Shown one piece after another: positions 33,192-52,470 of a stretch of 64,000 nt of DNA. Position 1 is the stretch's first letter, and each line of letters starts with the position of its first letter. The notes under the pieces are model-generated. The model searched no databases, was not told the origin of the DNA, and saw only the letters and a list, made by a program, of their open reading frames with translations. The position numbers were made by a program, and so were the translations under genes. Source of the DNA: an uncultured virus (IMG/VR IMGVR_UViG_3300049982_000266) (lineage: Duplodnaviria > Heunggongvirae > Uroviricota > Caudoviricetes). Location: the IMG/VR virus record IMGVR_UViG_3300049982_000266, one strand, 5' to 3'.

Positions 33192-33479
33192 CTACATGGA
33201 GCGGAAGGCACTCCTCAGGCGCCCGACGTGCGCGTGGATCACGGTCGCCAGCGCCGGGGTGTCGGCCTCAGCGTCCTTCGCGAACGCCTCCAGGTCGTCG
33301 AGGACGAGCACAGCCAGACCGGGCTCGCGAGCCTCGGCCAACGAGCGGATGCCGCGAGCGATGCCAGCGAGCGTCTTGCCGCTCTCCTTCGGCAGCATCT
33401 CGGCGGCCTGGACGCCGCGCGCCAGGGAGAGCAAGCGGGCAGTGGGACCGTCGATCGTGACGGGGATGCGGCCGGGCAC
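33192..33479 (-). CDS. hypothetical protein
   Basis: From VPGRIPVTIDG; coupled to AAA ATPase stop. Confidence 0.55.
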   Translation of the reverse strand: MPGRIPVTIDGPTARLLSLARGVQAAEMLPKESGKTLAGIARGIRSLAEAREPGLAVLVLDDLEAFAKDAEADTPALATVIHAHVGRLRSAFRSM

Positions 33480-35149
33480 TAAGACTCCTCGGTGGTGGTG
33501 GGCTTGCGGATGCCGGGGACGAAGTGCAGCCCCCGGAACATGGCGCACTTGGCGACCACGTCGGTGCTGAGCGGGACGCCGTTGCTCTTCGCGACGCGCA
33601 GCGACAGGCGCAACAGCATCTTCACGTCGCGGGGCGCGATGTGCTCGAAGCCACCGACCAGCGCGTCGAGCAGGTCGTCGTCGATCGTGACGCCCTGGTG
33701 CCGCGCCTGCACCTGCCAGACCGCGCGGATGCCGTCGATGTCCGGGACCTTGTAGTCGATGATCGCGGCGGCGCGGGACAGGATCGCGTCGTCGATGTTG
33801 TCGGCCCGGTTCGTGGTCATGAAGAGCAGCCCGTCGAAGTATTCGAGCGTGCGCAGGAACTCGGCCACAATCGCGTTCTGCGAGATGTTGTCGCCGCGCT
33901 GGAGCACGAAGACGTCGGCCTCGTCGAGCAGCAGGACGCAGTTCCAGCGCTTCGCCCTGGTGAAGATCTCCTCCAGGTTCTTCCGGACGTCGTCGGCGGC
34001 GATGCCGAGGTTGCCGCTGTGGATCGAGTAGAGCGGCCGGGCGATGAGTTCGGAGTAGACCTCGCCGGTCAGCGTCTTGCCGACGCCGGGCGCGCCCTTG
34101 CACAGCACGACGTTGCCCGCGCTCTTGCCCTCGATCACGTCTCCGGTGAAGTCGTCCAGGTTGCCGGTGAGGATGTCGAGGAGGTTGCGCTGGTCGTCCG
34201 GCAGCACGATCTTGTCGCGCAGCGTCGGGTCGTAGACGTAGCGCTCCAGGTCGCGGCCGTTGACGGTGATGAAGTCGTGCACGCGCAGGTCGAAGACCGG
34301 CACGGCGAAGTGCGTCGGGACCGCGCCCGCGCCGTCGACCTCGTCGTCCTCGCACTCGCGCTTGCTCGGGGCGGTGGTGCCGAAGACGGCGGACGGCGCA
34401 TAGAGCGACGGCGGCCGGACCTCGGACGGGGCGAGGTCCATGATGACCTTGCGGTTCTCGCGCTCGCCGCCGTCAGTCCGCCAGTTGTCGGTGCCCAGCG
34501 GCACGCCGTTGTAGCGGAACTGCTCGGCGAAGCCGGTGCTCAGGATCTCGACGTAGCCCTCCAGGGCGGCGTCGTAGTCGGCCCGCAGCGCGGGGGTCTC
34601 GACGTACGCACCGGCGCCTTCGAGCACCTGCGAGATGCGCTTGCGGGTCACGCTGTCGGCTTCGAGGTGGATGCTGCTCGTGGTCAGCCCCGAGCCCTTC
34701 GAGCCGTTGCGGCCGGAGCCGCGCGCCTGCTGGCCGTTCGCGGCCAGGTCGATCGTGACGTAGGGCGGACCACCCTGCGCGCGCGGCTCGTGGAACTTGA
34801 CGGCCGTGACGAGCCACGCGTGCAGGTGGCCGTCGGTGCCGCGCCTGTAGATCCAGCCGTCGGTGCGGCGGGTGCGCAGGTAGGCGAGGATCATCTCCGG
34901 CGCGGCGATGAGCCGGGGGATCTTCGGGTCGTCGCCAGCGCGGGCCGCGATGATGGCGCCGGTGACGCGGCTCAGCGGGCCGTTCCCGGCCGCCGTCAGC
35001 GCGTCGTGCAGCGCCGTGAGGATCGCGTCGTCGAGGTCGTCCGAGGTCAGCGTGACCTCGTCGCCGTAGCGCCCACCCTCGATCTTCGCGAGCAGCGCCG
35101 CGTCGGTCGTGTGGTCGCGCAGGGTCTTCGGGAACGTCAGCCCGCTCAC
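33479..35149 (-). CDS. AAA+ ATPase
   Basis: Walker A GAPGVGKT, Walker B LLLDEAD, sensor MTTNR, IDDAILSR. Confidence 0.9.
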   Translation of the reverse strand: MSGLTFPKTLRDHTTDAALLAKIEGGRYGDEVTLTSDDLDDAILTALHDALTAAGNGPLSRVTGAIIAARAGDDPKIPRLIAAPEMILAYLRTRRTDGWIYRRGTDGHLHAWLVTAVKFHEPRAQGGPPYVTIDLAANGQQARGSGRNGSKGSGLTTSSIHLEADSVTRKRISQVLEGAGAYVETPALRADYDAALEGYVEILSTGFAEQFRYNGVPLGTDNWRTDGGERENRKVIMDLAPSEVRPPSLYAPSAVFGTTAPSKRECEDDEVDGAGAVPTHFAVPVFDLRVHDFITVNGRDLERYVYDPTLRDKIVLPDDQRNLLDILTGNLDDFTGDVIEGKSAGNVVLCKGAPGVGKTLTGEVYSELIARPLYSIHSGNLGIAADDVRKNLEEIFTRAKRWNCVLLLDEADVFVLQRGDNISQNAIVAEFLRTLEYFDGLLFMTTNRADNIDDAILSRAAAIIDYKVPDIDGIRAVWQVQARHQGVTIDDDLLDALVGGFEHIAPRDVKMLLRLSLRVAKSNGVPLSTDVVAKCAMFRGLHFVPGIRKPTTTEES

Positions 35150-35427
35150 AGGTTCACTCCGCTCAGGACGGCCGGGTCGACGGCGCGGAGGGCGCCGCCG
35201 GAGGTACGCATCTGCTGGTACATGCGGCGCACGGTCTCGCGCGCCTCGTTGTCGTTGAGCCCGAGGAAGCGCAGGCGCAGGTTGACCACGCCTCCACCGA
35301 CGGGCTTCGCCGAGGACTCCTCGACGACGGCCAGGTCGTTCACGGGCTGGACCGCCAGCGCCAGCGCCTCGTCGGGCGTGGTGGTGGGGGCGGGCTGCAC
35401 GTCGATCGAGACGTAGTAGGTCTTCAC
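35146..35427 (-). CDS. hypothetical protein
   Basis: First gene after repeat module, coupled to ATPase. Confidence 0.65.
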   Translation of the reverse strand: MKTYYVSIDVQPAPTTTPDEALALAVQPVNDLAVVEESSAKPVGGGVVNLRLRFLGLNDNEARETVRRMYQQMRTSGGALRAVDPAVLSGVNL

Positions 35428-35503
35428 TGCTGCTCCTGGTGCTCGGGCCGGTCGCTCTCCGGCGTGATGACAGAACGGTAGCACACCCGTCCACGGACTT
35501 AGC
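35428..35503 (-). promoter_or_regulatory. Repeat module with leader hairpin
   Basis: GCTAAGTCCGTGGACGGGTGTGCTACCGT ... GCCGG-AGAGCGA-CCGGC (35447-35463) ... CCAGGAG; TAA is the upstream stop. Confidence 0.8.
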
Positions 35504-35704
35504 GACTGCGGCGGATCTCCACGACGAAGCGGCCGGAGTCGTACGCGGTGTGCACCGTGCAGCCATGCTCGCGGGCGGCACGGGCCAGTCGGGGGCGCAG
35601 GGCGCGCGCCTGCGCGGCGCTGCCGGGCTCCAGGACATAGAGCCCCGGCTCGCCCGTCCAGGCGGTGTCGGAGGCGTCCACGCGCCGGGGCAGCAGGTCG
35701 GCGC

Positions 35705-35950: not shown

Positions 35951-36011
35951 GGGGGCTCCTGAGGGTGGGCGCCGGGTTCGCTCCCCGGCGTGTGAAAGAA
36001 CTGTAGCACAG
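35951..36011 (-). promoter_or_regulatory. Repeat module with leader hairpin
   Basis: TGTGCTACAGT ... CGCCGGG-GAGCGAA-CCCGGCG (35970-35990) ... CAGGAG. Confidence 0.8.
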
Positions 36012-37103: not shown

Positions 37104-37766
37104 CTACGTGGTGGGACGCGTGCGCTGCGACACGACGGCGCACTCGCCATCGGCCGCGAGCAGGAGACCGAAGTCCTCCCACGAGAGCAAGGCGGTGCCA
37201 CCGACGCCCCAGTCCTTCCCCCACGAGTTGTGCACGAGGACGGTCCGCTTCGGCACGTTCACCCCTCGGACCAAGACGCAGTGCCCTCCCTCGACCTGTC
37301 CCGTCCGCCGGATGAAGCCGTCCGATCCGGGGCGGAACATGCCGGTCCACCACTCGACGCCGATGACGACCGGACCGCGCCGCGAGATGGTCGCGAGCGC
37401 GTCCTGGAGCCCGAACGCCCAGCGGTACTCGCCGACGTAGCCGAGCGCCTTCGCGGCCTTCGCACCGGCCAGCACGGAGGTGCCGGAGTACGCCTCGCCC
37501 TCCCACTCGTCGAGGCGCTGCGCGTCCCGGTAGATGCCGAACGCGAGCGGGCTCGTGGCGGGCAGCGGCAGCGGCTTCGCGGCGATCTCGTGCGCCCAGC
37601 CGTGGCCGACGCAGGCACCCTCCTGGCCCTGGTCGAGATAGGTGTCGCAGCCCCACGTGTAGGAGCGCGGCTCCTCGCCAGCGGCGAGGGTGCGGTAGCC
37701 CTTCGACGCCGGGTCGTGTCGGGACTGCCAGTCGAGGATCGGGCCGATCGGGCTCTTCGTCACCAT
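37104..37766 (-). CDS. papain-like cysteine peptidase (family C1)
   Basis: LDQGQEGACVG, GGHCV, HNSWGKDWG catalytic motifs. Confidence 0.9.
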   Translation of the reverse strand: MVTKSPIGPILDWQSRHDPASKGYRTLAAGEEPRSYTWGCDTYLDQGQEGACVGHGWAHEIAAKPLPLPATSPLAFGIYRDAQRLDEWEGEAYSGTSVLAGAKAAKALGYVGEYRWAFGLQDALATISRRGPVVIGVEWWTGMFRPGSDGFIRRTGQVEGGHCVLVRGVNVPKRTVLVHNSWGKDWGVGGTALLSWEDFGLLLAADGECAVVSQRTRPTT

Positions 37767-38529: not shown

Positions 38530-39213
38530 TCAAGCGCCGATGCCGGTGAGGGCGCGCGCGGCGACCTCCACCTCGGGCCAGGTGTCGGTGACGACGACAG
38601 CCAGCCACACGTTCGCGACGGCCAGCAGCCCCGCCAGCACGCGCTCGGGCCAGGTGTCGGTCGTGAAGAGCCCGACGCCGTAGCGACGGCGTGACGGCCA
38701 CAGCAGCGGCACGCGCTCGGGAGTCAGAGCGTCGCCGAGCAGGTGCGCCAGCGCGCCAAGCGCCAGCGCCCAGCCGAGCCATGCCGTCTGCACCTCCCCG
38801 GCGTAGACGGCCAGCGCGAGCACCCCGGCGGCGATCTCGTTGCGCGGCCCCTTGTCGTGGAGCAGGACGCCGAGCGCGAGGCTCGCGGCGAGGAAGACGG
38901 GCACGACGGCCCACCATCCCCCGGCCGCTCCGGCGGCGGCGCCGAGCACGCCGACCAGGGCGACGAAGAGCAGGCTGTGCGTGCCCTGCCGGTGGCCGCC
39001 GGACAGCCGCGCCACGAGCCGCGCGAGCGCCCGCGTCAGCGGCCCCCACGAGCGGGCGATCGACGACGACGGGTGGTCGAGGTCGGGCAGCATCGCGGCC
39101 CCGGCGGTGACGACGAGCCCGGCGGCGATCTCCCGGCCGCCGAGCCCGAGCAGCGGCGTCGCGGCCAGCCACACCGTCACGCCGGACAGGGCGTGCGTCC
39201 GAGCCATGCACAC
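38530..39213 (-). CDS. membrane metal-dependent hydrolase (YdjM-like)
   Basis: THALSG, LPDLDHP, HRQGTHSL, HLLGDALT; multiple TMs. Confidence 0.85.
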   Translation of the reverse strand: MCMARTHALSGVTVWLAATPLLGLGGREIAAGLVVTAGAAMLPDLDHPSSSIARSWGPLTRALARLVARLSGGHRQGTHSLLFVALVGVLGAAAGAAGGWWAVVPVFLAASLALGVLLHDKGPRNEIAAGVLALAVYAGEVQTAWLGWALALGALAHLLGDALTPERVPLLWPSRRRYGVGLFTTDTWPERVLAGLLAVANVWLAVVVTDTWPEVEVAARALTGIGA

Positions 39214-40199: not shown

Positions 40200-40628
40200 T
40201 CACAGCCCGAGGGCCTTCGCCTTCACGTCGTTCCACGAGCCGAGCGTGTTGCGCACGGTCTGCGCGCTCGGGGCGGCGTGCGTCATCGTCCAGCGGGTGA
40301 AGTCGGCGTAGGAGCCCTTCGCGTCAGGGTCGGCGAGGTAGGCGCGGACGGCGGCCCAGCAGTCCTCCTCGCTGAAGGTCCGGGCGTAGGTGCTGCGGCC
40401 GGAGCCGCCGGGCTCGACGCCTGCGGCCTCGCACGCGGCTCGCCAGGAGCCGAAGCGCTGGAGCACGCGGGCCGGGCTGACGGCGTCGTCGGGCTTCGTT
40501 CGGTCATACCGGCGGCTGGACAAGCGGCCGTCGGGCCATGCGGCGGCGGCGGTCCGCAGGTCGTCGAGCACTTGCTCGTCGGTGCGTCCGTCTCCCTTGC
40601 GCTGCGGGTGCAGTGCGGTGGTCGACAC
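40200..40628 (-). CDS. homing-endonuclease-associated repeat protein (two repeats, no nuclease domain)
   Basis: TDEQVLDDLR...Y...RFGSWRAACEAAGV and second repeat ...PSAQTVRNTLGSWND. Confidence 0.75.
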   Translation of the reverse strand: MSTTALHPQRKGDGRTDEQVLDDLRTAAAAWPDGRLSSRRYDRTKPDDAVSPARVLQRFGSWRAACEAAGVEPGGSGRSTYARTFSEEDCWAAVRAYLADPDAKGSYADFTRWTMTHAAPSAQTVRNTLGSWNDVKAKALGL

Positions 40629-40704
40629 GTGTCCTCCTGTGATGGTTACCTGTCACGGTAGCACGGCGCCCACCCGCTTAGCGGACGGCGTGCACGGGCT
40701 TAGC
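40629..40704 (-). promoter_or_regulatory. Repeat module with tandem boxes, no hairpin
   Basis: GCTAAGCCCGTGCACG...GCTAAGCGGGTGGGCGCCGTGCTACCGT...CAGGAGG; first TAA is the FtsK-gene stop. Confidence 0.7.
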
Positions 40705-42604
40705 GCGCGACGACGGCTGCCGGGCGCAGCGCGTCGAGAAGCGGGTCGGGGCCGGACTCCGGGTCGGGCGTCCACCACACTTGCACCTCGCGGGGGCCGG
40801 AGCCTACGTCGGCGGTGGCGCGGCCCTTCGCGTCAGCCGGGACGTCGCGGCCGACACTGGAGTCCTGAAACATCATCTTCGCGCCGTCCTGCGAGAGCGC
40901 GCCGAGGGCGACGCGGGCGCCGTAGTTGTCGCGGGCGGCGCCACCGAAGATCGAGGCGTCCGGACGCTGGATGCCGACGAGCAGGTGGACGCGCGCGGTC
41001 CGGCCGAGCCGGGCGATCGAGCGCCACTGCTCGACGACGGGGTGCACCGTGCCGGTCTGGCCCTTCTCGCGGTTCGCCTTCCACCACGCGTTCGAGCGCT
41101 CGATCCACTCGTGCGCCTCGTCGACCACGAGCAGCACCGGGCGGTGCGAGTCCTTCGCCACCCGGCGGCTCTCGACCTCGGCGTAGCGGCTGTCCATCTT
41201 CTCGTGCATCCGCTCCATGAGGTCGATCATGTCCTCGGTGTCGGTCGCCACCTCGGCCACGTTCGGCCAGCCGCGCAGCCCCATCATCTCGACGCGCTTC
41301 GGGTCGAGGATCCGGATCTCGAAGCCGCGCAGCGCGGCCTCCGTGATGAGCGCCCGCAGGGCCACGGTCTTCCCTCCGCCGGTCTCCCCGGCCACGAGGC
41401 AGTGCGGCGCGACACGCAGGTCCCACGCGACCTCGGCGCCGTCCTCGTCGGTGGCGAAGGGCAGCCGCCAGGTGTCGGACAGGTCGGCCGGGACGTGGTG
41501 GTCGATCTTCGCGGGCATGGCCGGGCGCCGAGCGGCGACGACCCGGTCGGCGTCGGTCTCCCAGTCCAGCCGCCAGCGGCCGGGCGCCTTCGCGTTGATG
41601 ACCTCCTGGAGCCCGAAGCGGGTCTCGGGGGCGTCGTCGCGGAAGGTGCTCGGGTAGGCGATGCGGACGGTGCGCGGGCCGACGTCGTCCCAGTCGGCGA
41701 CCTGGATCTTCGGGTCGCCGGTGCGGATGAAGCCCCGGATCGCGGCGTCCAGGCGCTCGGTCAGCACGGCCCGGCCGGAGTCACGCTCGACCGGCGGCTC
41801 GGGCTTGCGAGGGTCGGGGTCGCCCGGCCGGGGCTCACGGAACGTGACGAGGTCGCGGGACGGCTGCCAGTCGGCGACGAGCGGGACGTGGAGCCCGACG
41901 GCCTTGCGGGTGACGGCGACCTCGACCCGAGCGCGGGCCTGGTCGTCGGTGTCGTCAAAGCGCGGGCCGTAGCGGATCTCCAGGCGCCGGGGCGTCATGC
42001 CCTGCCAGCGCCCGGCGGTGATGAAGCCGGGCGCGGTCACGCTGGTCTGCGTCTCGCGGCCGACGATCTCGGCGATGCGGGCGACGACGGCCCGGCGCTT
42101 CGCGACGGTGCGGAGCCCCCACAGGATGCCGACGGCGAAGCCCGCTCCGGCCAGCGCGCCGGTCCGGGCGATCGCGGGGTGGCCGAGCAGCGTCCAGGCG
42201 CCGAGCCACACGAGCAGCGCGCCGAAGTGCGGCCGGAGCCACGGCGCCTCGACCTTCACCGGCGGTCCTCCTCGACGTCGTGCTGCGCGCTCGGTCGCCT
42301 CCCGGGCGGTCTTCGCCCGGTGGCAGTCCTCGCACAAGACCTGGCGGTTGTGGGGGTCGTGGCTGCCGCCGTCCACGAGAGGCGTCACGTGGTCGGCGTG
42401 GAAGGGGCCGTGCGCCGTCCCGCAGCGGGCGCACCGGCGGCCGTTGTCCCGCAGGGTCGCGTCGCGATACTCGCGCTTGTCCCGCTGCGCCAGGCGACAG
42501 GGCCGGTGCGACCGCAGCCGAGGGGCCGCTGGCTCGCCGCAGTAGCGGCAGGTGCCGGGGGGTGCGTCGGGGTGCGCCACCTCGACCTTGCGGTGCTCGC
42601 TCAC
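40700..42604 (-). CDS. HNH nuclease-TM-FtsK/SpoIIIE (TcpA/TraB-like coupling protein) fusion
   Basis: N-term CARC...DHVTPLVDGG...NRQVLCEDCHRAKT; two TMs; HCLVAGETGGGKT, ILDPK, LVVDEA, ARLGR..RVHLLVGIQRPDA. Confidence 0.85.
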   Translation of the reverse strand: MSEHRKVEVAHPDAPPGTCRYCGEPAAPRLRSHRPCRLAQRDKREYRDATLRDNGRRCARCGTAHGPFHADHVTPLVDGGSHDPHNRQVLCEDCHRAKTAREATERAARRRGGPPVKVEAPWLRPHFGALLVWLGAWTLLGHPAIARTGALAGAGFAVGILWGLRTVAKRRAVVARIAEIVGRETQTSVTAPGFITAGRWQGMTPRRLEIRYGPRFDDTDDQARARVEVAVTRKAVGLHVPLVADWQPSRDLVTFREPRPGDPDPRKPEPPVERDSGRAVLTERLDAAIRGFIRTGDPKIQVADWDDVGPRTVRIAYPSTFRDDAPETRFGLQEVINAKAPGRWRLDWETDADRVVAARRPAMPAKIDHHVPADLSDTWRLPFATDEDGAEVAWDLRVAPHCLVAGETGGGKTVALRALITEAALRGFEIRILDPKRVEMMGLRGWPNVAEVATDTEDMIDLMERMHEKMDSRYAEVESRRVAKDSHRPVLLVVDEAHEWIERSNAWWKANREKGQTGTVHPVVEQWRSIARLGRTARVHLLVGIQRPDASIFGGAARDNYGARVALGALSQDGAKMMFQDSSVGRDVPADAKGRATADVGSGPREVQVWWTPDPESGPDPLLDALRPAAVVAR

Positions 42605-43014
42605 CGGCCGAGCCTAGATCATCTCGACCGCCCCGAGCCGTCTCGACGCGCCGCCGGTCGCCCGGCCCGAAGGACGGAGGTGGGCCGACGAGGCGAGCCT
42701 CGGCCAGCAGCGGGCCAGCCGTCCAGCACGGCTCACCCTCGACCTTAGGTTGACACTTCGGGTAGGGTCAGCCGCGCTGTGTAGCGCCAGCGGAGCAGAG
42801 CGGCTGGACCGGGCGGATGGCACACCTCCAGGGCCGACGAGAGCAGCCCGAGGCAGGAGCGGCGGCGAGCCCGGCGGGCGGCCCGAAGGGCTCTCGCCGC
42901 AGGCTGGCACCGACCTCCGACAGAACGGGCGCGAGCGCGCCTGCGGTCGCCGTCCGGACGGGCTCTCCGTCCCACCCTCGACTAGAGGTCGACCCTTCGG
43001 GGTACTGTCAGAGC

Positions 43015-43290
43015 ATGGACGCACGCGGAACCACGTTCGCGACCCTGGAGCCCCCGGCTCCGAGGGCTCCGCAGCGTGTCACCGCCTCCTCGAAGACGCG
43101 CGGTGAGCGCGTCATCGTCCTGCGCCCGGAGGGGCCGATCCGCAACGTCCGCGCGACGTCGGACCCGGTCGAGATCGACGGCGTGCTGCACGTCCGCTGC
43201 GTGTCCGAAGAGGACTGGTACAGGTGGGCGTTCGTCGGCACGAAGCCGACCATCCAGCCCTACCCGGCCTACCTCGTCTTCCTGGAGTAA
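43015..43290 (+). CDS. hypothetical protein; the only clear plus-strand gene, leaderless
   Basis: TACTGT-CAGAGC-ATG; protein-like 91 aa; convergent terminator follows. Confidence 0.65.
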   Translation: MDARGTTFATLEPPAPRAPQRVTASSKTRGERVIVLRPEGPIRNVRATSDPVEIDGVLHVRCVSEEDWYRWAFVGTKPTIQPYPAYLVFLE

Positions 43291-43294
43291 GCAC

Positions 43295-43327
43295 GACGCC
43301 CCCCACCTTCTCGGCGGGGGGCGTCGG
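43295..43327. terminator. bidirectional hairpin terminator
   Basis: CGACGCCCCCC...GGGGGGCGTCG between convergent genes. Confidence 0.65.
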
Positions 43328-43329
43328 CG

Positions 43330-43596
43330 TCAGTAGGGCTCGACGGCCTGCGCGACCGGCTGTTCGTCGGTCGGCGGGATCGGCGTGCCGAAGGGGATGC
43401 ACACGAGCCGGATCGCCGACGGGCTGAGCCCGAGGCGGCGGCTCATCGCGCCCGGCTTCACGCCGTCCCGGAAGGCGCGGCGCAGGGCGTTGTCGCGGGC
43501 CTCGCGCAGCGCCTTGATCTGCTCCTCGTGCCGCTCGATCTGGCGCATGAGGTGCTGCGCTTCGTCCAGGTGGCTGACCTGCTCGGCGGTGGTCAC
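43330..43596 (-). CDS. small coiled-coil + HTH protein
   Basis: ARDNALRRAFRDGVKPGAMSRRLGLSPSAIR. Confidence 0.65.
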   Translation of the reverse strand: MTTAEQVSHLDEAQHLMRQIERHEEQIKALREARDNALRRAFRDGVKPGAMSRRLGLSPSAIRLVCIPFGTPIPPTDEQPVAQAVEPY

Positions 43597-44591
43597 GCGG
43601 CTGCTCCAGGGTCGGGGACGCCGTGGTCGGCGAGCCAGGGTCGGGGGTCGGTCGGGATGCCGTTGACGCGCACCTCGAAGTGCAGGTGCGGGCCGGTGCT
43701 GTTGCCGGTCGTGCCGACGAAGCCGAGCGGACTGCCGGGCTGCACCTCGTCACCGACGGTGACGCTCACGGCGGACTGGTGGGCGTAGTAGGTCTCGACG
43801 CCGTCCGCATGGATCACGCGCACGAGGTTGCCGTAGCCGCCCCCGTTGCCGACGAACGACACGCGGCCAGCCGACGCGGCGTAGATCGGGGTGCCGGTCG
43901 GGGCGGCGTAGTCGAGCCCGGCGTGGTTGGTCGAGCCGATGCCGCCTGGCGACCGGCGCGGTCCGAAGCCGGACGTCAGCACGTACGTGCCGGGGGCCAG
44001 CGGGTGCGTCCAGGGTCCGGCGGCCAGCGGGGCGCAGGTGGCCGGTGCGGCGCCGTCCAGGGTCGTCACGACGGCCGTCGCCCAGCCCTCCTGCTCGGCG
44101 TACCGGAGCGGGAAGGCCGAGCCCTGCACGACCTGCGCCAGCGCGCCGACGGTCATGATCTCCCAGCCGGGGGTCCGCTGCACGCCGTCGTAGAACCACG
44201 AGACGCTGAAGAGCGGGTCGAGGCGCTGCTCGACGCTGCCGTGGTCGTCGATCAACTGGAGTGCGCCGATGCTCGTGCCGTGGCCGTAGGGCAGGTTGCG
44301 CATCCCCGACTCGACCTTGCCTGCGGCGATCGCGGCCACCCACGCCTTCGGCGCGAGCCCCCGGCGCTTGCCCTCGGCGATGAACACCTGAGCGACGGCG
44401 ACCTGCTCGGAGTCGAGCCCGGAGGCGGTGGCCGCCGGGTCGACGCCGATGGAGCACGAGACCGCTGAGGTCGGGCCAACGTCCTCGGCTCCGGCGCCGA
44501 CCGCGACGGTCATCGTGAGCATCCCGACGCCGACGATGCCGAGCGGGCTGCACAGCACGGCGGCGGCCAGCAGCGGCTTCCACGCCCTCAC
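43593..44591 (-). CDS. conjugation-associated peptidoglycan hydrolase (lysozyme-like + M23 peptidase)
   Basis: N-term TM; VESGMRNL...AQVVQGSAFP; HAGLD, YAHQ, STGPHLHFEV. Confidence 0.9.
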   Translation of the reverse strand: MRAWKPLLAAAVLCSPLGIVGVGMLTMTVAVGAGAEDVGPTSAVSCSIGVDPAATASGLDSEQVAVAQVFIAEGKRRGLAPKAWVAAIAAGKVESGMRNLPYGHGTSIGALQLIDDHGSVEQRLDPLFSVSWFYDGVQRTPGWEIMTVGALAQVVQGSAFPLRYAEQEGWATAVVTTLDGAAPATCAPLAAGPWTHPLAPGTYVLTSGFGPRRSPGGIGSTNHAGLDYAAPTGTPIYAASAGRVSFVGNGGGYGNLVRVIHADGVETYYAHQSAVSVTVGDEVQPGSPLGFVGTTGNSTGPHLHFEVRVNGIPTDPRPWLADHGVPDPGAAA

Positions 44592-45088
44592 TCGCGCGCC
44601 TCGCGGACGTCGGCGACCTGCCAGCGGGAGCCGTCGGTGACGAGGTCGACGAGCAGCGTCTCCTCGCTGTTGAGCGTCACCGCGACCGACGCGGTCGTCT
44701 CGCCGACGTCGACCGCCGAGGCGCCGACGACGTTGCCGACGGGCAGCCGGTCGGTCTCGGTGAAGTGCAGCATCTCGGCCAGCGCCGGGGTGCAGCGCTC
44801 GGCCATCTCGCGGTTCCAGATGGCACGCTCGGTGTCGGTCATCGGCGGCGTCGCGAAGATCGACATGAAGCCGCGAGCGGCGTCCACGACGACCTCCTCC
44901 TCGCCCGGCTCGACGACCGGCACCGGGCTCTCGACCGGGGCTGCCGACGGACTCGGCTCGCGCTCGACCGTGATAAGGCGCTCCACGGCGGGCTCCCGGT
45001 ACTCGGGCTCACCGCCGAGGATCCAGGCGGCCAGGAGTACCCCGAGCACGGCGGCGAGGAAGGCGGCGACGCGCCAGCGGCTACGCAT
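44588..45088 (-). CDS. bitopic membrane protein, possible VirB8/TcpC-like
   Basis: N-term TM, NTF2-like C-term (..LLVDLVTDGSRWQVADV); operon position. Confidence 0.5.
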   Translation of the reverse strand: MRSRWRVAAFLAAVLGVLLAAWILGGEPEYREPAVERLITVEREPSPSAAPVESPVPVVEPGEEEVVVDAARGFMSIFATPPMTDTERAIWNREMAERCTPALAEMLHFTETDRLPVGNVVGASAVDVGETTASVAVTLNSEETLLVDLVTDGSRWQVADVREARE

Positions 45089-46961
45089 CGGTCACCTCGG
45101 CGCCGACCTCGGGCCGGTACAGGACGAAGACCTCGTCGCCGTCCACGATCTCCGGCTCGACCGGAGGGGCCAGGCTCGTGTTCGCCGGAAGCACCGGCGC
45201 CTCCTCGTCCTCGGGCACGTAGACGTCGACCGGCGGCAGGGCGGCCGGGGGCGGGGGCTCGATCGCGCCGGTCGACGGGACGACGATCGGCCCGCCCTCG
45301 TGCACCGGCGCCTCGTCCTCGTGCAGACCCGCCACGACGGGCGCTGCGGCCAGGGCGGGGGCCGGAGCCCCGACCGGGGCGATCGCGGGCTGAGCGACCT
45401 GCCGAGGGGCCGGAGCGGGCGCGCTGTAGGACTCGGCCCGCACGGTGGTCGGGCTCTCCTGCTGCTGACGCTCGGCCTCCTCCTCGGCGGCGTTCTCGAC
45501 GGCCTGCTTCGTGCCGACGTACGCGCCGACGCCCGAGGTCACCGCGCCCATCGCGGCCCGCTTCGCGGAGTCGACGGCGCCCCGCGCCTTGTCGCCGAGC
45601 GCGCTGGCCGCATCGCCGAACGGGTCGGGGTTGCGCACCATGCGGGTGAGCCTCCGGAACGGCCGGAGCACGGTGAACATGACGACGCTGAAGAGCGCGA
45701 CGAGCATGAGCGCCAGCCACGTCGGCAGTCCGCTGGCAGGGTCGAGCAAGATCCCGATGCTGAGCACGGTGAAGGCGGCGCCGACACCGAAGGCAACGCA
45801 GTTGACGATGGCCGCGCCGACGGTGTTGCCGACGCCCCGGACCACGCCCGGCATGAGGATGCCCATGACGAGCAGCAGCGGCGCGAACATCACCGCGAGC
45901 CGGACGATGAGGAAGGCGCCGATGATGAGCAGCGCCGACACGAGCACGAACGGGGCGGCGCAGAGCATCGCGAAGAGCGAGACGAGCACGGCCCCCATCC
46001 GGCTCTCCGAGCGCTTGCCGGTGAAGTAGGCGTAGGCGTCCGGATCGGACTCCTGGATCTCGGCGGCGGCCTGCTCCCAGCGCTCCTGCTTCGCCTCGAT
46101 CACGGCGGCGCGTTCTTCGGCGGGCAGCGCCGCCTCGGCCCACGTGAGCGCCTGCGAGTCGAAGATCACCGGCCCGTACTGCTCGGCCGTCGCGCCGTTG
46201 CTCTTGCCGAAGGTCCCGGTGAGCCACTGCTGGTAGAGCACGGCGTCGTGCAGGCTGCCAGCGGCGGCGTCCGCCGGGTCGTCGCTGTCCTGCCCGGCGA
46301 CCCCGTTGAGCCCGGCGTTGACGGCCCCGAGCGCCGTGGTGACGGTGTCGTCGGCGACGTGCCCGGCAGCCACCGGGTAGCGGAAGAGCACCGTCGCCAG
46401 CACCATCACGAAGACGGCCCAGCCGACGGCTCCGGCGGTGCTCGCCAGGTTGCCCCGGCGCGCCTTCCAGATGAGCCCGAAGCCGAGCGCGGCCAGGGCC
46501 AGTCCGAGGAAGGACTCGAAGACGGTCTCGCGCAGCGTCGAGGTGACGTGCTCCAGCAGCCCGTCGAAGGCGCCGAGGAAGGTCGGCTCGAAGGCGACGT
46601 CGGTCAGGGCGTTCGTCAGGGCGACGCCCGCCTTCGGGATCTCCAGCAGCCAGTTCGAGATCGCGGTGCCGACGGTCGCCTCGGGGTTGCGCGCGGCGTC
46701 CGGGCCGCAGCCGAGGTCGTAGGTGGTGAAGCGCAGACCGGCGTAGCCGTACTGCTCATAGATCGACGTCGTCGGCTTCTCGGCGAACGGGTCGCCGGGC
46801 TCGGGCACCTCGGGGTCGGAGGTGAAGTACCCGGCCAGCCCCCGGCCGGGGGTGTCCGGCGTCGGCGCATCCTTGCAGTCGAAGGGGGCGGCCGACGCCG
46901 GAGCGGCGAGCAGGACGAGAGCGGTCAGAGCGAGCCCCAGCAGGGCGAGCAGCCGCCTCAC
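45081..46961 (-). CDS. polytopic conjugation membrane protein (VirB6/TcpH-like)
   Basis: Signal peptide, YEQYGYAGLRFTTYDLGCG, many TMs, Pro-rich tail; follows VirB4. Confidence 0.75.
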   Translation of the reverse strand: MRRLLALLGLALTALVLLAAPASAAPFDCKDAPTPDTPGRGLAGYFTSDPEVPEPGDPFAEKPTTSIYEQYGYAGLRFTTYDLGCGPDAARNPEATVGTAISNWLLEIPKAGVALTNALTDVAFEPTFLGAFDGLLEHVTSTLRETVFESFLGLALAALGFGLIWKARRGNLASTAGAVGWAVFVMVLATVLFRYPVAAGHVADDTVTTALGAVNAGLNGVAGQDSDDPADAAAGSLHDAVLYQQWLTGTFGKSNGATAEQYGPVIFDSQALTWAEAALPAEERAAVIEAKQERWEQAAAEIQESDPDAYAYFTGKRSESRMGAVLVSLFAMLCAAPFVLVSALLIIGAFLIVRLAVMFAPLLLVMGILMPGVVRGVGNTVGAAIVNCVAFGVGAAFTVLSIGILLDPASGLPTWLALMLVALFSVVMFTVLRPFRRLTRMVRNPDPFGDAASALGDKARGAVDSAKRAAMGAVTSGVGAYVGTKQAVENAAEEEAERQQQESPTTVRAESYSAPAPAPRQVAQPAIAPVGAPAPALAAAPVVAGLHEDEAPVHEGGPIVVPSTGAIEPPPPAALPPVDVYVPEDEEAPVLPANTSLAPPVEPEIVDGDEVFVLYRPEVGAEVTDA

Positions 46962-49480
46962 GCGGTCAGCGCCAGGTCGGCGTCGCGGGCCGTCCAGGTG
47001 GGCGTGGCGGTGCTGTCCAGGGCGGCCAGCAGCGCCGGGTTCCACGTCAGGTCGACACGCATCTTCTCGACGTTGCCGTCCACGTCGCGCATGACGAACT
47101 CGCGCGAGCCCGAGCGGGCCGTCGAGCGGCGGTCCTGCGGGCTGAGCCCGGCCAGGGTCGCCTCGTAGCCGACGCCCTCGGGGACGCGCAGCAGCCGGAG
47201 CGCCTGGCGGGCGTGGTCCTCGTCCTGCGTGCGGCCGACGAAGGCCGTGCTGACGAAGTTCGCGACGTCGAGCCCGAGCAGGTCGCTCGCGTTCTGCGAC
47301 GTCGGCATGACGCAGGCGTTCCACTTGCGGCTGTCGCGAGCGAGCCGGGTGAACAGCGCGCGGCCCGACCCCCAGTCGCCGAGGAAGTGCGCCTCGTCGA
47401 GCCCGACCATCTTCCGCTCGCTCATCGCGCGGCCGTAGATGGCCGTCGAGGTGAGGTAGGCGGCCAGGTGCAGCAGCGGGACGGCCAGCGCCTCGCCGGT
47501 GCTCCAGGACTCGCGAGGCACGCCGCGCGGAGGCAGCACGAGCCCCGGCATGGTGAGCACCGTGAGCACGGCGTCCGACGACCGGTCGAGCGAGTAGCCC
47601 GAGCCGTAGAAGAGCCGGGCCAGCGGCATGTCGGCCATGTCGCGCAGGTAGTTGGCGATGACCTTGCCGTGCGGGCTGTCGTGGCCGTCCAGGTTGCGGA
47701 TCACGGTCTGGATCGAGCCGGTGCTGAAGCCGCCGGTGACGCGCACGGCGTCAGCGATCACGAGCCGGGTCTCCGGCATCGCGTCGACCTGCGGCGGCAG
47801 GAGCATCCGCAGGACGTCGGTCACGAGCCCCTTGCGCTCGGCCATCGCCTCGGCCTTCGCCGTCAGCCACAGCGTCTCGTCGGCGAACGCCTCCCGGCGC
47901 GGCTCGGGCACGACGCTGTACGGGTTGAGGGTGCCGGACTCGGCGTGCAGCAGGTCGACGTGCCGCGAGACGCCCTGCAACTCCGGCAGGGTCGTGAGCC
48001 GGGCCAGCGGGCCGGACGGGTCGAGCAGCGTCGTGGTGTTGCCGCGCATCGCGTTCACATAGGCGAGCGCGCCCATGAGCACCGACTTGCCCGCGCCGAG
48101 TCCGCCGACGATCGGCGTCACGCCCGAGGTCTCGCGGACCTCCGTGGCGAAGTGCGGGTCGAACATCACGGCCCGGCGGCTCGTGCCGCAGGTGTAGCCG
48201 AGGTAGGAGCCGCGCCGGTCGCCGAGGCTAGCCGACACGGTCGGCATGGCGGCGGCGAAGGCGAGCACCGGCAGGCGGCGGCGGTGCGCGGTGCTGCTCA
48301 GCGGCTCGCCGGGGATGAACTCGCGGAGCAAGCCCTCCTGCCCCTTCGGGTGCTCGACGGCCATGCGCAGCGGCTTGTAGAGGTCGACGACCTGGCGGGC
48401 GCGGTCCAGGCACTCGTCCTCGGTCGCTCCGGACACCGCGAGGCGGTGCCAGCCGTAGGCGCGGGTCGAGATGACCTCGTGGCCCTCGGTCATCTCGTCG
48501 TCGACCTGGCGGGCGCGGGCGGTCTTGCGCCCGAGGTCGAGCGGGACGTCGATCCCGTGCTCGGCGTAGTGCTTCTCCATGTCGCGGCCGACGAGCAGGC
48601 GGCGGCCGACGGCGGCCTTCGCGTCCTCCCCGGAGAGCATGTCGACGCGGCTGCTCCACTCGACGGTGAAGGGCAGCCGGTCGGCGTGGCTCATCCACGG
48701 GTCGAACGCCGGGTGCGGCGCCACGACCTCGTCGGTGCGGCCGATGGTCAGCACGGCGACGTAGCGGGTGACCTGCTTCCCGGCACGCTCGGCGGTGACC
48801 TTGACGCAGCGTCCGAGCGGCGCAGTCTCGTAGGTGACGCCGTCGGTGAAGGCGTGCAGGTCGCCGGGCTCCCACTCGCCGTTCTCGACGGGGCTCAGCG
48901 ACGACGGCGCTGGCAGCCCGAGCGCGACGCTGCGGTGCAGCAGGAACTCGACGTCGCGGGCGGTTGCGGGCGCGCCCTCGATCCCCGGTCCGGCGACGAC
49001 CTTCGCGATGCTCTTGACCTGCTCGGCGATCTTCTCGCGCTCGCTCTTCGTAGGCTTGCGGCTCAGCATCTCCAGCACGGCGGCGGTCCACGGCCGGTCG
49101 CCGATCTCGACGCCGAGCAGCACTTCCTTCTCGGCGAGCGTCGTGGTCTGGAGGTGCCGCTGCACGGCGACGAGGTGGTCGCTCCACGGGCTCCCGGCGG
49201 CCTTGCCGCCGACGGGCTCGGGGGTGTTGCGGTCCAGTCCCTCGGCCCACACGCGGACCGGGTAGGGACGGCTGGTCACGCGCCAGTGCAGCCGGTGGCC
49301 GGTGAGCCCGGCCAGGGTCGTGCCTGCGCCCATGAGCAGGGCGGTGCGCTGCTTCTCGGAGCGGAACGCCCAGTGCTGCGGCGGCAGGACGAACCACGCG
49401 ACGACGCGGTCACGGGTGATCGTGAGGTTGCCTGCGATCTCGCGCAGGGCGAGCGGACTCTTCGTGGTCTCGGTCTTCAA
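46958..49480 (-). CDS. virB4: VirB4/ConE/TcpF-like conjugation ATPase
   Basis: GGLGAGKS, LLDPSGPL, VGLDEAHFL, LARDSRKWN...SQN; TTG start after AGGAG. Confidence 0.85.
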   Translation of the reverse strand: MKTETTKSPLALREIAGNLTITRDRVVAWFVLPPQHWAFRSEKQRTALLMGAGTTLAGLTGHRLHWRVTSRPYPVRVWAEGLDRNTPEPVGGKAAGSPWSDHLVAVQRHLQTTTLAEKEVLLGVEIGDRPWTAAVLEMLSRKPTKSEREKIAEQVKSIAKVVAGPGIEGAPATARDVEFLLHRSVALGLPAPSSLSPVENGEWEPGDLHAFTDGVTYETAPLGRCVKVTAERAGKQVTRYVAVLTIGRTDEVVAPHPAFDPWMSHADRLPFTVEWSSRVDMLSGEDAKAAVGRRLLVGRDMEKHYAEHGIDVPLDLGRKTARARQVDDEMTEGHEVISTRAYGWHRLAVSGATEDECLDRARQVVDLYKPLRMAVEHPKGQEGLLREFIPGEPLSSTAHRRRLPVLAFAAAMPTVSASLGDRRGSYLGYTCGTSRRAVMFDPHFATEVRETSGVTPIVGGLGAGKSVLMGALAYVNAMRGNTTTLLDPSGPLARLTTLPELQGVSRHVDLLHAESGTLNPYSVVPEPRREAFADETLWLTAKAEAMAERKGLVTDVLRMLLPPQVDAMPETRLVIADAVRVTGGFSTGSIQTVIRNLDGHDSPHGKVIANYLRDMADMPLARLFYGSGYSLDRSSDAVLTVLTMPGLVLPPRGVPRESWSTGEALAVPLLHLAAYLTSTAIYGRAMSERKMVGLDEAHFLGDWGSGRALFTRLARDSRKWNACVMPTSQNASDLLGLDVANFVSTAFVGRTQDEDHARQALRLLRVPEGVGYEATLAGLSPQDRRSTARSGSREFVMRDVDGNVEKMRVDLTWNPALLAALDSTATPTWTARDADLALTA

Positions 49481-49830
49481 GGGGTCTCCTGGATGCGCAC
49501 GCGGCTGGTGGTGACGCGGTGCGCAGTCGGCTTCGCGGGGCGGCTGGCGCGGACCTCGGCGCGCACGGTCTGGAGCAGGCTCCGGACGGTGCGGTCGCTG
49601 TCGACGTAGCCCATGACGGCGTAGGTGACGAGGGTCGCGATGACGGCCTCCCACACCGGGACTCCGACGCCGAGCACGGGCACGATCGCCTTGACGGCCA
49701 GGATGCCGAGGAAAACGGCGATCCAGACCCCGTAGGCGACGTAGCGCGCGTGCCAGGGCAGCGGGGCTCCGGCGGGCCCGAGCCAGATGGCCCGGATGCG
49801 GAAGACGTCGTCGTCGGTACGAAGCCTCAC
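49477..49830 (-). CDS. TcpE/VirB3-like conjugation membrane protein
   Basis: RTDDDVFRIRAIWLGP...LPW..RYVAYG, two TMs, directly upstream of VirB4. Confidence 0.7.
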   Translation of the reverse strand: MRLRTDDDVFRIRAIWLGPAGAPLPWHARYVAYGVWIAVFLGILAVKAIVPVLGVGVPVWEAVIATLVTYAVMGYVDSDRTVRSLLQTVRAEVRASRPAKPTAHRVTTSRVRIQETP

Positions 49831-50075
49831 TGGATGATGATGCCGGTCAACTCGTCGGCGAACGAGTAGAGGATCGGCCCGGCGGCGATGACGACGAGCC
49901 CGATGAGCACGAGCGTCATGGTCGAGGCGGCGTCGGACACGCGGCCCTTGCGGCTGCTCGCGATGATGCCGATGCCGATGACGAGGCACAGGATCGGGAC
50001 GATGAGGCGGACGCCCGCCTCGACGATCCCGTCGGTGTTCAGCGTCGCGGCGAGGGTGATGCTCTCGTGGATCAC
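49827..50075 (-). CDS. TcpD/VirB2-like small two-TM protein
   Basis: 82 aa, two hydrophobic helices, first gene of operon. Confidence 0.6.
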   Translation of the reverse strand: MIHESITLAATLNTDGIVEAGVRLIVPILCLVIGIGIIASSRKGRVSDAASTMTLVLIGLVVIAAGPILYSFADELTGIIIQ

Positions 50076-50145
50076 GGGTCCTGCTTCCTGTAGTGGGAAC
50101 GCCCGGCTCGCTCGGCCGGGTCGTGGATCTACGCTAACACAGCGC
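50076..50145 (-). promoter_or_regulatory. Promoter + leader hairpin heading the conjugation operon
   Basis: TGTTAGCGT ... CCCGGC-CGAGCGA-GCCGGG (50102-50120) ... CAGGA. Confidence 0.75.
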
Positions 50146-50164
50146 ACAGTGCGCTGCGCAGTTC

Positions 50165-50719
50165 TCAGACCGGCGCGTCGCAGGGGATCGAGCGGCCGTC
50201 ATTCGTGAGCAGCCGCCAGCCCCAGTGCGTACGCACCGGCACGGCGGTCGCGTCCACCGTGGGGCCGTTGCGCCGGATGACGAAGCCGTCGCGCTCAGCG
50301 GCCTCGCGGTCGTCGTCGAGCGCCTTGTGGCATCCGCTCGCGTTGCCCATGCCGCAGACGAGCACGAGCCACGCCGGGCCGTTCGTGCGGTCTGCCTCGG
50401 CCTTGCTCCGGCCGCCCATGCCCCGGCCCTCGCGGTGCTGGAGGTTCGTGCCCGGCCAGCCGCAGCGCTGGCACAGACCCATGTCGCGCAGCCACACGAG
50501 GTTGCGCGTCGCGGTCGAGGGGCCGGTGTCCCGGAGTGCCTGCTGCCGGGGCTGTGCGGCCCGCTGCGGCGCTGCTGCGCGGGCCGGGGGCGCCGACCGC
50601 CGGACCGGCTCCTGGCGGGCCTGGAGCGGCTTGCCGCGCTCCAGGGGCTTCGTCGTCTTCAGCGGCTTGTCGCCCTGCGCCAGCGGCGTCTTCCGGGCAG
50701 GCGGTCCGGAGCGCTTCAC
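50165..50719 (-). CDS. HNH endonuclease (actinophage type)
   Basis: RDMGLCQRCG...QHREGRGMGG...LVLVCG.GN.SGCH. Confidence 0.75.
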   Translation of the reverse strand: MKRSGPPARKTPLAQGDKPLKTTKPLERGKPLQARQEPVRRSAPPARAAAPQRAAQPRQQALRDTGPSTATRNLVWLRDMGLCQRCGWPGTNLQHREGRGMGGRSKAEADRTNGPAWLVLVCGMGNASGCHKALDDDREAAERDGFVIRRNGPTVDATAVPVRTHWGWRLLTNDGRSIPCDAPV

Positions 50720-51130: not shown

Positions 51131-52036
51131 TCAGCCCTCCAGGGCGGGGGTCGTCGGGACGGGCTCCCACGGCGCCCGGCGACCGCCAGTGGCAGCGGCG
51201 TCCATCGCGCGCTCCAGGACCCCGTGAGTCTGTGCCATGCCCTGCGCGCCGCGCTGCTGGCGGTCGGCGCGGTTCTGCACGTCACGCCGGACCCAGTTCC
51301 GCCAGGTCGCGGCCCAGTCGACCTTCACGCCGCGCTGGCCAGGCGCGGAGCGCCAGTGGTCGCAGAAGACCTCGTGGATCTTCGCGGCGTCCTCGGCGGT
51401 GAGCCCCTGCGCCAGCGTCCAGGCGACGAGGTCGGGCTCCAGGACGAAGGGCTCCGGGAGGCGGGTGCCCTTGCGCTTCGGCGTCGGCGCAGGCTCGGCT
51501 TCGAGCGAGGGGGTCCCCTGCGAAGCAGGGGGGGTGTCTTCTGCGTAGTGCTTCTGAGGAGTGACTACAGCGGCAGGGTCCCCGACCGTCGGCTCCCCGA
51601 CTGCCGGGTCCCCGACCGACGGGAAGCCGTCACCCTGCACCCGCCGCCTATCCGGGCGGTCCTCGACGGCCTGCGCCCCCTTCAGCCGGGCTGCCTCGGC
51701 CGCCCACTCGGCGACAGGCTCGACCGAGATCTCGACGTCGGTGAACCACCGGGGGCCGCGCTCCGTGCGCACGCTGTAGCGCACCCGGCGGTAGTAGCCG
51801 TGCGCGATCAACTCCTGGATGCCGGAGCGGATCGCCTCGCGGCCTTCCTTGCCGCCGCGCTCGACGGCCTCGGCGCGGACCTTCCAGCCGTCCGGCTTCG
51901 CCAGCAGCGAGCACAGGATGCCGCGCGCCTTGTAGGACAGCCGCTCGTCTTCGAGCAGCGCGTTCGGGATCGCCTCGTAGCCCGAACGCGGACGGCGCTT
52001 CCGCAGCCGCGAGCCCTCGTCGGCGGGGGAGGTCAT
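51131..52036 (-). CDS. RepA-like replication initiator
   Basis: IPNALLEDERLSYKARG...GREAIRSGIQELIAHGY wHTH; GTRLP...DHW...K.DWAATWRNW. Confidence 0.8.
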   Translation of the reverse strand: MTSPADEGSRLRKRRPRSGYEAIPNALLEDERLSYKARGILCSLLAKPDGWKVRAEAVERGGKEGREAIRSGIQELIAHGYYRRVRYSVRTERGPRWFTDVEISVEPVAEWAAEAARLKGAQAVEDRPDRRRVQGDGFPSVGDPAVGEPTVGDPAAVVTPQKHYAEDTPPASQGTPSLEAEPAPTPKRKGTRLPEPFVLEPDLVAWTLAQGLTAEDAAKIHEVFCDHWRSAPGQRGVKVDWAATWRNWVRRDVQNRADRQQRGAQGMAQTHGVLERAMDAAATGGRRAPWEPVPTTPALEG

Positions 52037-52434
52037 CGGTCGCCCTTCCGCGCGTTGCAGGACTCGCGCGCGAGCACGCAGTTCGCGAGCACGTCCGGTC
52101 CGCCCTTCGAGGTCGGGACCACGTGGTCGACGGTGACGGTGCGGTAGATCAACCGGACGCCGCAGTAGCGGCAGTCCCAGCCGTCACGCGCGACGACGTG
52201 CGTGGCCCGGCGCATCGCCAGGGACAGGCAGCCGGGGCCGGTCCACACGGTGCTCGGGCGGCTCCGCTTCCAGCGGAGGTCGGGGTCAGCCTGGAGGGCT
52301 GCCACGAGTTCGAGGAGACGGATCTCCCTCGTGTCGCACGCTGCTGCGCGCTCGATCGTCTGTACGCTCACGCTGAAGTGCTCTCCGTTCGGTGCTGCGG
52401 ACGGGTGGTGCGAGGCGGCGGCTCGGGATCCCAC
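52033..52434 (-). CDS. HNH endonuclease, possibly degenerate
   Basis: RDGWDCRYCG...TVDHVVPTSKGG...NCVLARESCNARKG; start uncertain. Confidence 0.65.
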   Translation of the reverse strand: MGSRAAASHHPSAAPNGEHFSVSVQTIERAAACDTREIRLLELVAALQADPDLRWKRSRPSTVWTGPGCLSLAMRRATHVVARDGWDCRYCGVRLIYRTVTVDHVVPTSKGGPDVLANCVLARESCNARKGDR

Positions 52435-52470
52435 TCCCGGCCGCCGTCGGCCTTGCTCGGGTCGGTGACG

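Follow-up and report, generated by a model that had tools for sequence, protein, structure and literature searches.

A predicted HNH domain on a TcpA-like DNA pump beside a VirB4-like module of a putative phage-like actinobacterial element

Conjugation is commonly taught as a process that needs a relaxase, which nicks the origin of transfer (oriT) and pilots the strand. TcpA, the FtsK-like coupling protein of the Clostridium perfringens plasmid pCW3, partners the relaxase TcpM and operates together with a VirB4-type ATPase, a VirB6-like membrane protein and a hydrolase of the cell wall. Orf21 of Tn916 and ConQ of ICEBs1 are further FtsK-like coupling proteins. TraB of Streptomyces plasmids and AICEs is a membrane-bound FtsK-like motor that moves double-stranded DNA between actinobacterial cells without a relaxase. 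Its action does not involve a type IV secretion system (T4SS), and a C-terminal winged helix-turn-helix domain serves to read clt repeats. In FtsK-like systems of actinomycetes, a closed DNA circle must somehow enter a ring-shaped pump. The present analysis concerns one gene of an uncultured virus (IMG/VR record IMGVR_UViG_3300049982_000266) in a stretch of 64 kb, hereafter the window, which is part of a 127-kb contig. The gene, at 40700..42604 on the minus strand, encodes an HNH domain and an FtsK/TcpA-type ATPase in one protein, referred to as the pump. We tentatively prefer to see in it the coupling ATPase of a Gram-positive-type T4SS-like module on a phage-like actinobacterial element, with the HNH domain cutting DNA for the pump. 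This is considered quite possible, if just short of probable.

Architecture and conservation of the fused pump

The pump gene is a single open reading frame (ORF) with a GTG start and encodes 634 amino acids. Its layout (40700..42604), as derived from the ORF, Pfam, AlphaFold and Foldseek, comprises a zinc-HNH domain, a hairpin of two transmembrane helices, two small α/β modules and an FtsK/TcpA-type ATPase. An HNH domain followed by two transmembrane helices and an FtsK/SpoIIIE ATPase had been proposed in the initial annotation of the window, and Pfam, hydropathy and AlphaFold agreed with it. The AlphaFold model, computed with 72 aligned relatives as input, has a mean pLDDT of 93.3 and contains, from the N- to the C-terminus, a ββα HNH core, a helical hairpin, two α/β modules and the ATPase.

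Residues 1–115 (42260..42604) hold an N-terminal CxxC...HxxC motif (C19, C22, H33, C36) and the HNH domain behind it, recognised by Pfam and by a sequence match in the PDB. The Pfam match to HNH (PF01844) covers residues 58–101 (42302–42433) with E 2.4e-9, above the cut-off. The HNH motif is complete with C58xxC61, D71-H72, N86 and C91xxC94-H95, the first and last of which contribute two CxxC pairs of the zinc type. In the model, the strands 68–72 and 87–91 and the subsequent helix 92–110 (pLDDT >90) form the ββα fold of this family. C58, H72, G80, C91 and H95 are invariant among 20 fused proteins. The best PDB sequence match of this part was the HNH domain of ZRANB3 (5mkw; E 1.5e-6, residues 17–111), followed by phage and IscB-type HNH domains. 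The HNH domain is conserved and probably active.

The membrane hairpin (residues ~123–168, 42101..42238) was recognised from hydrophobic stretches at residues 127–145 and 149–168 and from the model helices 123–139 and 143–185. A two-helix hairpin brings both ends of the protein to one side of the membrane, and the ATPase must face the cytoplasm; the N-terminal HNH domain would therefore be cytoplasmic as well, with the hairpin as membrane anchor. The two small α/β modules (residues 171–385, 41450..42094) were modelled with a pLDDT of 92. VIA-align gave generic α/β matches only, with a best Z of 7.8 for a SpoIIE fragment; the second module matched the alpha subdomain of TcpA (6o1x, Z 5.2) and of FtsK (2ius, Z 4.9) weakly, and all these Z scores lie within the range that VIA-align calls common.

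The RecA-like ATPase of the FtsK/TcpA type spans residues 386–620 (40745..41449) according to Pfam and a PDB profile match, and the protein terminates only 14 residues behind it. FtsK_SpoIIIE (PF01580) was found at residues 386–483 with E 2.2e-15. Walker A is G406-T413 (41366–41389) and Walker B is D495-E496; G406, G411, K412, D495 and E496 do not vary among 72 sequences. The protein thus has the FtsK-type RecA-like ATPase with both Walker motifs and the N-terminal transmembrane anchor of a Gram-positive type IV coupling protein. TcpA of pCW3 was the closest solved relative of the ATPase, both by profile (E 1.3e-19, residues 389–613) and by Foldseek (6o1w, E 5.7e-19, target TM 0.64). FtsK was second with 3e-14 (profile) and 1e-15 (fold).

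By the sequence comparisons made, the fusion is old and widespread. A word-index protein search gave 47 proteins, and all five close homologues with 52–62% identity (608–734 amino acids) carry both domains. An exhaustive search of 1.84 billion cluster representatives yielded 15,446 matches at E ≤0.001 and 421 at E ≤1e-30. By a hidden Markov model, the N-terminal module was present in 41 of 194 collected proteins, namely the window protein, the five close homologues and 35 of the best 150 representatives (50%-identity clusters). PF01580 was present in all 35, and PF01844 in 16 of them at E ≤1e-4. P0058 and P0064 have a degenerate N-terminal module that was seen by eye. The module also heads five ORFs on IMG/VR viral records (L083 on genome G404 and L100–L103 on G405–G408). 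None of the 41 aligned N-termini has lost the His of the 'DH' or the final His in front of 'KT'. Among six close proteins, identity by region was 56–72% for the HNH domain, 61–82% for the ATPase and 28–32% for the linker and transmembrane part. The fused homologues are single ORFs and not always two separate genes, as would have spoken against a true fusion. Since the fusion was kept over deep divergence, the recent loss of a stop codon, which had been offered as an alternative in the initial annotation, is rejected.

It was further considered that the HNH domain could be the remnant of a selfish homing endonuclease that is attached to the pump and functionless there. Free-standing HNH genes are frequent in phages, G405 has another one besides its fused gene, and the window contains at least two further HNH ORFs. 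In addition, an ORF with a homing-endonuclease-associated repeat (40200..40628, minus strand; PF18780, E 8.9e-10) lies directly downstream of the pump gene. However, comparison with the window's other HNH ORFs (E 0.007 and 0.21) shows that the pump HNH is not their paralogue, and among close relatives its identity equals that of the ATPase. In 41 proteins and 5 loci from several deep clades, the module is without exception N-terminal and joined to the pump at the same point, and none of 90 genomic or plasmid loci with an unfused pump had a similar stand-alone HNH gene adjacent to it. The pump HNH is neither a separate ORF nor sporadic in the manner of a free-standing homing endonuclease. Such a remnant is very unlikely on this evidence. 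The PF18780 ORF might possibly be a DNA-binding partner of the pump HNH; this family was not found near the fused genes in Pfam scans of G404 and L100–L103.

The ATPase region was used for a FastTree tree with 162 rows, 301 columns and a root placed on three FtsK proteins. It left out P0002 (a shorter public call of the window gene, see below), proteins <450 amino acids and the cellular FtsK hits P0014–P0048 except for the three outgroup rows. The 46 fused rows were placed in basal clades with 11 rows scored as unfused, while one clade of 102 rows (support 92), which includes the plasmids pAL1 and pRVR2, was wholly unfused. The fused state requires 10 changes, at least five of which are forced by starred branches; the shuffles had a mean of 40.3 and none of 500 shuffles was as low. 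Of the 11 rows scored as unfused, two are fused by eye, three are truncated and six begin at the hairpin; the latter could be short-form gene calls like P0002. The root of the tree is insecure and, thus, an ancestral fusion that was lost in plasmids and an early gain are both possible.

A possible internal start at codon 116

A second in-frame GTG with a Shine-Dalgarno (SD) sequence 7 nucleotides ahead, which would permit a long and a short form of the protein, had also been described in the initial annotation. It is present as codon 116 (42257–42259, minus strand), and a GGAGG ends 7 nucleotides in front of it. SD sequence and GTG form a putative internal translation-initiation signal (42257..42286, minus strand) together with a run of codons ending in A or T. 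This run comprises codons 107–113 (42266–42286, minus strand), spells GAGGAGGA and consists of GCA GCA CGA CGT CGA GGA GGA in direct succession. Codons ending in A or T are rare in this gene (31 of 634), and seven of them are the codons of the run. In 100,000 synonymous resamplings, a run of at least seven such codons was not obtained once anywhere in the gene. The SD word alone is weak evidence, because GGAGG occurred at the same place in 1,538 of 20,000 synonymous resamplings. The public gene call on the same DNA (P0002, 519 amino acids, 100% identical) begins exactly at the GTG of codon 116. At this codon or one residue away from it, the five close relatives carry Met or Val, as seen in the protein alignment only.

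The making of both forms is plausible for the window gene, given the codon run and the P0002 call, but an internal SD sequence and start were not found in any of the five phage relatives for which DNA was at hand (L083, L100–L103). A conserved internal start as a feature of the family was rejected for this reason. A functional short form of this gene has about even prospects; by the sequences compared, it is not regarded as a trait of the family.

The internal start bears on the question of whether two genes were read as one, such that only the 519-residue form is made or the joint is an artefact of assembly or of a lost stop codon. The public call P0002 does use the internal start, which is preceded by a strong SD sequence and the A/T-ending run; a clear SD sequence is missing ahead of the first GTG, and the DNA stems from a single soil-metagenome assembly. 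However, the frame is open from 42604, and the GC content at third codon positions is 0.88 in codons 1–115 and 0.96 in the remaining codons, which is of the coding type in both parts. The N-terminus aligns from residue 2 with homologues that were called as long proteins, and fused ORFs recur in independent assemblies. We therefore regard two separate genes as exceedingly improbable. A sequencing-run search located the stretch in one run only, its likely source, and listed no RNA run.

Transfer module, relaxase and phage setting

The pump gene closes a cluster on the minus strand that begins with a small ORF at 49827–50198. This is followed by a VirB4-like AAA_10 ATPase (46958..49654; PF12846, E 5.8e-27), a polytopic membrane protein without a Pfam family that is VirB6-like by position (45081..46964), a second small ORF, a Peptidase M23 cell-wall hydrolase (43593..44591; Pfam E 2.6e-34), a third small ORF, a gap of 725 nucleotides (42605..43329) and the pump. 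The VirB4-type ATPase, membrane protein and hydrolase beside which a type IV coupling protein works are hence found at 43593–49654. The longest ORF of the membrane protein (45081–47324) overlaps the VirB4-like gene by ~366 nucleotides; judging from the homologue in G404, the true start is probably the GTG near 46964 and not 47324.

The order of VirB4-like gene, membrane protein, hydrolase and pump is the same in the linear plasmid pAL1 and in G404, and pRVR2 holds the same gene set beside its pump. The pumps of pAL1 and pRVR2 begin at the membrane hairpin and have no HNH domain, whereas the one of G404 is fused. The window and G404 share just four proteins, with 49, 41, 39 and 35% identity. 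The VirB4-like protein is 49–51% identical to its counterpart in G404 and 38% identical over 842 amino acids to an 'ATP-binding protein' of pRVR2; it had no sequence match in the PDB. For the membrane protein, identity is 41–42% to G404 and 33% to pRVR2. Homologues of the M23 hydrolase were found in pAL1, pRVR2, pNFX87a and G404.

The statement that no MOB relaxase is recognisable in the window was confirmed at the level of Pfam, as no relaxase family was detected at E ≤0.01 in 60 ORFs of the window, a scan that covers 64 of the 127 kb of the contig. None was found in Pfam scans of 79 ORFs of G404 and 88 ORFs of G405 either, and a search of G404 with PF03432 gave no match. The partnership with relaxase and oriT that is typical for type IV coupling proteins was hence not seen at this level in the window, G404 or G405. 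This fits a relaxase-independent mechanism.

In the mechanism that we prefer, the protein would be a membrane-anchored coupling or translocase ATPase beside the VirB4-like ATPase, the membrane protein and the cell-wall hydrolase. Its HNH domain would cut the element's own DNA at the membrane, by a nick or a double-strand break, and the cut would provide a free DNA end on which the ring-shaped motor could act. As HNH enzymes do not become covalently attached to the DNA, re-closure in the recipient would have to use end or recombination functions of the element, for which the RecT-like and exonuclease-like genes in the window are candidates. In the case of this gene only, the HNH-less form of 519 amino acids could limit the number of nuclease heads in mixed rings. 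If the HNH domain acts in this way, elements may cut and move their own DNA without a classical relaxase, and a large conserved family with a nuclease on the pump would offer a direct and testable answer to the question of how DNA enters.

Besides the chance frequency of the GGAGG and the missing internal start in the phage relatives, several findings weigh against this mechanism. Nineteen of the 35 fused representatives were not called HNH by Pfam, and a subgroup of ~16 fused proteins is without the Asn and part of the first CxxC. The negative results for relaxases rest on the sensitivity of Pfam, and relaxases outside its families may be present. Of eight plasmids with an HNH-less pump, MOB-suite typed seven as non-mobilizable and one as MOBP; since these seven are also without a typed relaxase, its absence does not single out the HNH domain. 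Finally, the VirB4 module of G405–G408 lies on the same replicon as the fused gene, but not adjacent to it, and in G405 the two are ~22 kb apart.

The proposal that the HNH domain takes the place of a relaxase is compatible with the absence of Pfam relaxases from the window, G404 and G405, but it loses weight through the HNH-less plasmids that lack one likewise. Fused or not, the whole family is characterised by having no recognisable relaxase, and the pumps may work without a known relaxase with or without HNH domain. The eight plasmids include pAL1, pRVR2 and pAP13; pAL1 has a separate gene for an HNH endonuclease of 891 amino acids, 8.5 kb from its pump gene. Five of the eight are linear and three are circular, and the idea that unfused pumps occur on linear and fused ones on circular replicons was not upheld.

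The fused forms of known context sit in tailed-phage genomes and not in plasmids. They are found on five IMG/VR records: L083 on G404, an 85-kb provirus with an estimated completeness of 90%, and L100–L103 on G405–G408 with 61–81 kb and an estimated completeness of 78–100%. All five encode a VirB4-like AAA_10 protein of 917–998 amino acids, and four an SPP1-type portal, the exception being the record with 78% completeness. The structural genes of G404 include an SPP1-type portal, scaffold, tail sheath, baseplate J and gp25. G405 encodes an HK97-type capsid, portal, tail-completion and tail-collar proteins and an M15 lysin as well as PrimPol-D5. It closes on a terminal overlap of 127 bp and was read as a circular assembly. 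Its VirB4-like gene is followed by a membrane protein, a small ORF and an SLT hydrolase, and this set, accompanied by a DUF4134 and an ArdC-N protein, immediately follows the genes for tail and lysis. G404 (L083, L094–L097) and G405 (L100, L180–L183) are near-complete tailed phages of high-GC hosts with a VirB4-like set.

Fused forms were not encountered in PLSDB and INPHARED, where no record covered ≥80% of the fused queries P0001 and P0126, nor among 80 loci on contigs of species-representative genomes. Homologues occurred in 13 of 401 sampled Actinomycetes genomes, none of them fused. The locus L003, which matched residues 15–631, was rejected as a fused gene, because the alignment reads through stop codons. 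A scan of JGI metagenomes gave no relative of the fused protein, and single-protein scans of IMG/VR yielded nothing beyond the record of the query itself and a small, unrelated HNH. In megablast, positions 36000–60000 had one plasmid match of 88 bp and no phage match. Among the cultured phages of INPHARED, the VirB4-like protein of the window matched only three Firmicute records, which are apparently derived from integrative and conjugative elements.

The phage setting agrees with another explanation, a role in the phage life cycle. The pump would then be a nuclease-motor in the membrane that either rids the cell of host or competing DNA, by degradation or expulsion, or processes replicating phage DNA, with superinfection exclusion, host takeover and anti-plasmid or anti-phage conflict as possible options. 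All five fused relatives with context belong to tailed phages, and in four of the five records the fused gene is apart from the VirB4 module, which allows a different role. Its neighbours in these four are genes for YdjM, Prok-JAB, C1 peptidase, zeta-toxin-like and endonuclease VII proteins. YdjM, Prok-JAB and C1 peptidase recur within 5–9 kb of the fused gene on the four contigs; the former two were found near the pump on L100–L103, and the C1 peptidase was recognised in L103 (Pfam) and in L100 (tblastn). In the same relative place, the window has a YdjM-family membrane hydrolase (38530–39213) and a papain-like C1 peptidase (37104–37766; both minus strand and identified by Pfam), with 31–33% tblastn identity to L100 and L103. 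In PHROGs, FtsK-like proteins of phages belong to the category 'moron, auxiliary metabolic gene and host takeover'. Furthermore, FtsK-like ATPases occur in defence, and PADLOC gave partial matches to mad8 (E 1.8e-16) and SspH (E 8.8e-15).

However, these PADLOC matches cover only the ATPase core, and partner genes were not found among the 18 proteins scanned. The matches are generic and neither strongly support nor exclude a phage-specific role in conflict or DNA processing; a known PADLOC system was rejected for want of a full-length match with partner genes. In the window and in G404, moreover, the pump closes the cluster of VirB4-like ATPase, membrane protein and hydrolase as it does in plasmids, its closest solved relative is a conjugative coupling protein, and the VirB4-like gene is present in all five phage records with the fusion. 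A life-cycle role, the main rival of the coupling function, is judged fairly unlikely.

The coupling function might also be extended from this element to the whole group. Actinobacterial tailed phages and prophages would then own a relaxase-less T4SS-like machine, the coupling ATPase of which brings its own HNH domain, and would spread by contact besides virions. Loading of the pump would start with a cut that the HNH domain makes at the membrane in circular or concatemeric phage DNA; end or recombination functions of the phage would re-close the DNA in the recipient. We regard contact spread of this kind as unlikely. A home in tailed phages with VirB4-like machines would blur the boundary between phages and conjugative elements.

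The window itself is probably part of a large phage or phage-plasmid. PHROG matches comprised RecT-like, helicase, exonuclease-like, tail-fibre-like and terminase-small-like proteins, while neither capsid nor portal was found in its 64 kb with PHROGs, including 34 further candidate ORFs at 0.3–30 kb, which had no family. The two further HNH ORFs (50165–50719 and 52036–52470, minus strand) flank a protein of 301 amino acids (51131–52036) with PHROG matches to replication-initiation and primosomal proteins. A tRNA-Leu(CAG) is located at 61167–61254 (minus strand) between a tail-fibre-like ORF (62756–64000; Peptidase_S74) and unknown ORFs. At 33479–35638 (minus strand), an AAA+ protein of 719 amino acids matched phrog_29662, a phage 'ATP-dependent protease' (E 1.3e-85), and less strongly IetA, an ATPase of defence (E 7e-13).

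The gap upstream of the pump gene contains a motif of 29 nucleotides, CCCGAAGNGTCRACCTNNRGTCGAGGGTG, at 42734–42762 and 42973–43001 (minus strand), with the copies 239 nucleotides apart. It has these two matches in the gap and none elsewhere in the window, with 0 expected in 100 shuffles, and could be a promoter, an operator or a cis site for the pump. Repeats upstream of the relatives' fused genes had no motif in common with it. Within the gap, no Rfam family at E <0.7 and no sigma-70-like promoter were detected, and promoter and terminator scans gave nothing usable. The only plausible plus-strand coding near the pump is an ORF of ~90 amino acids at ~43016–43290 without a Pfam family, the C-terminal half of which looks protein-like (...VIVLRPEGPIRNVRATSDPVEIDGVLHVRCVSEEDWYRW...).

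Comparison with known systems

A literature search in full text found no title or abstract on an HNH-FtsK fusion or on such phages; a mention in the FtsK-HerA study of Iyer et al. (2004) is possible. Within titles and abstracts, the fusion of HNH and FtsK is an undescribed design.

The window pump resembles TcpA (PDB 6o1w–6o1z) in its N-terminal membrane anchor and FtsK-type ATPase, with an identity of ~19%. It differs in that TcpA has no nuclease domain, while the window pump is fused to HNH and no relaxase family was found with it. The FtsK/SpoIIIE proteins of actinobacterial plasmids (WP_011928040 of pAL1, WP_202239974 of pRVR2 and others from Rhodococcus and Microbacterium) are 31–43% identical from ~residue 190 to the end. 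They share the transmembrane hairpin, the middle region and the module genes with the window pump; unlike it, they lack the HNH domain and often have a C-terminal extension.

The window pump is not a TraB protein. No NCBIfam model exceeded its own cut-off for the 634 residues, and plasmid_TraB (NF041214) gave 19 bits compared to a cut-off of 800. The protein has little sequence behind the ATPase, and its gene lies next to a VirB4-like module.

Gene 4 of phage T7 yields a 63- and a 56-kDa form of a ring-shaped motor from an internal start, and the short form is without the N-terminal zinc domain. It is an analogy for the internal start only, and the signal in the window is not conserved in the five relatives. 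The human SNF2 translocase ZRANB3, the cleavage of which is structure-specific and ATP-dependent, differs by its unrelated motor family, its soluble and eukaryotic nature and the position of HNH at the C-terminal end. Like the window pump, it combines a DNA motor and an HNH domain in one polypeptide.

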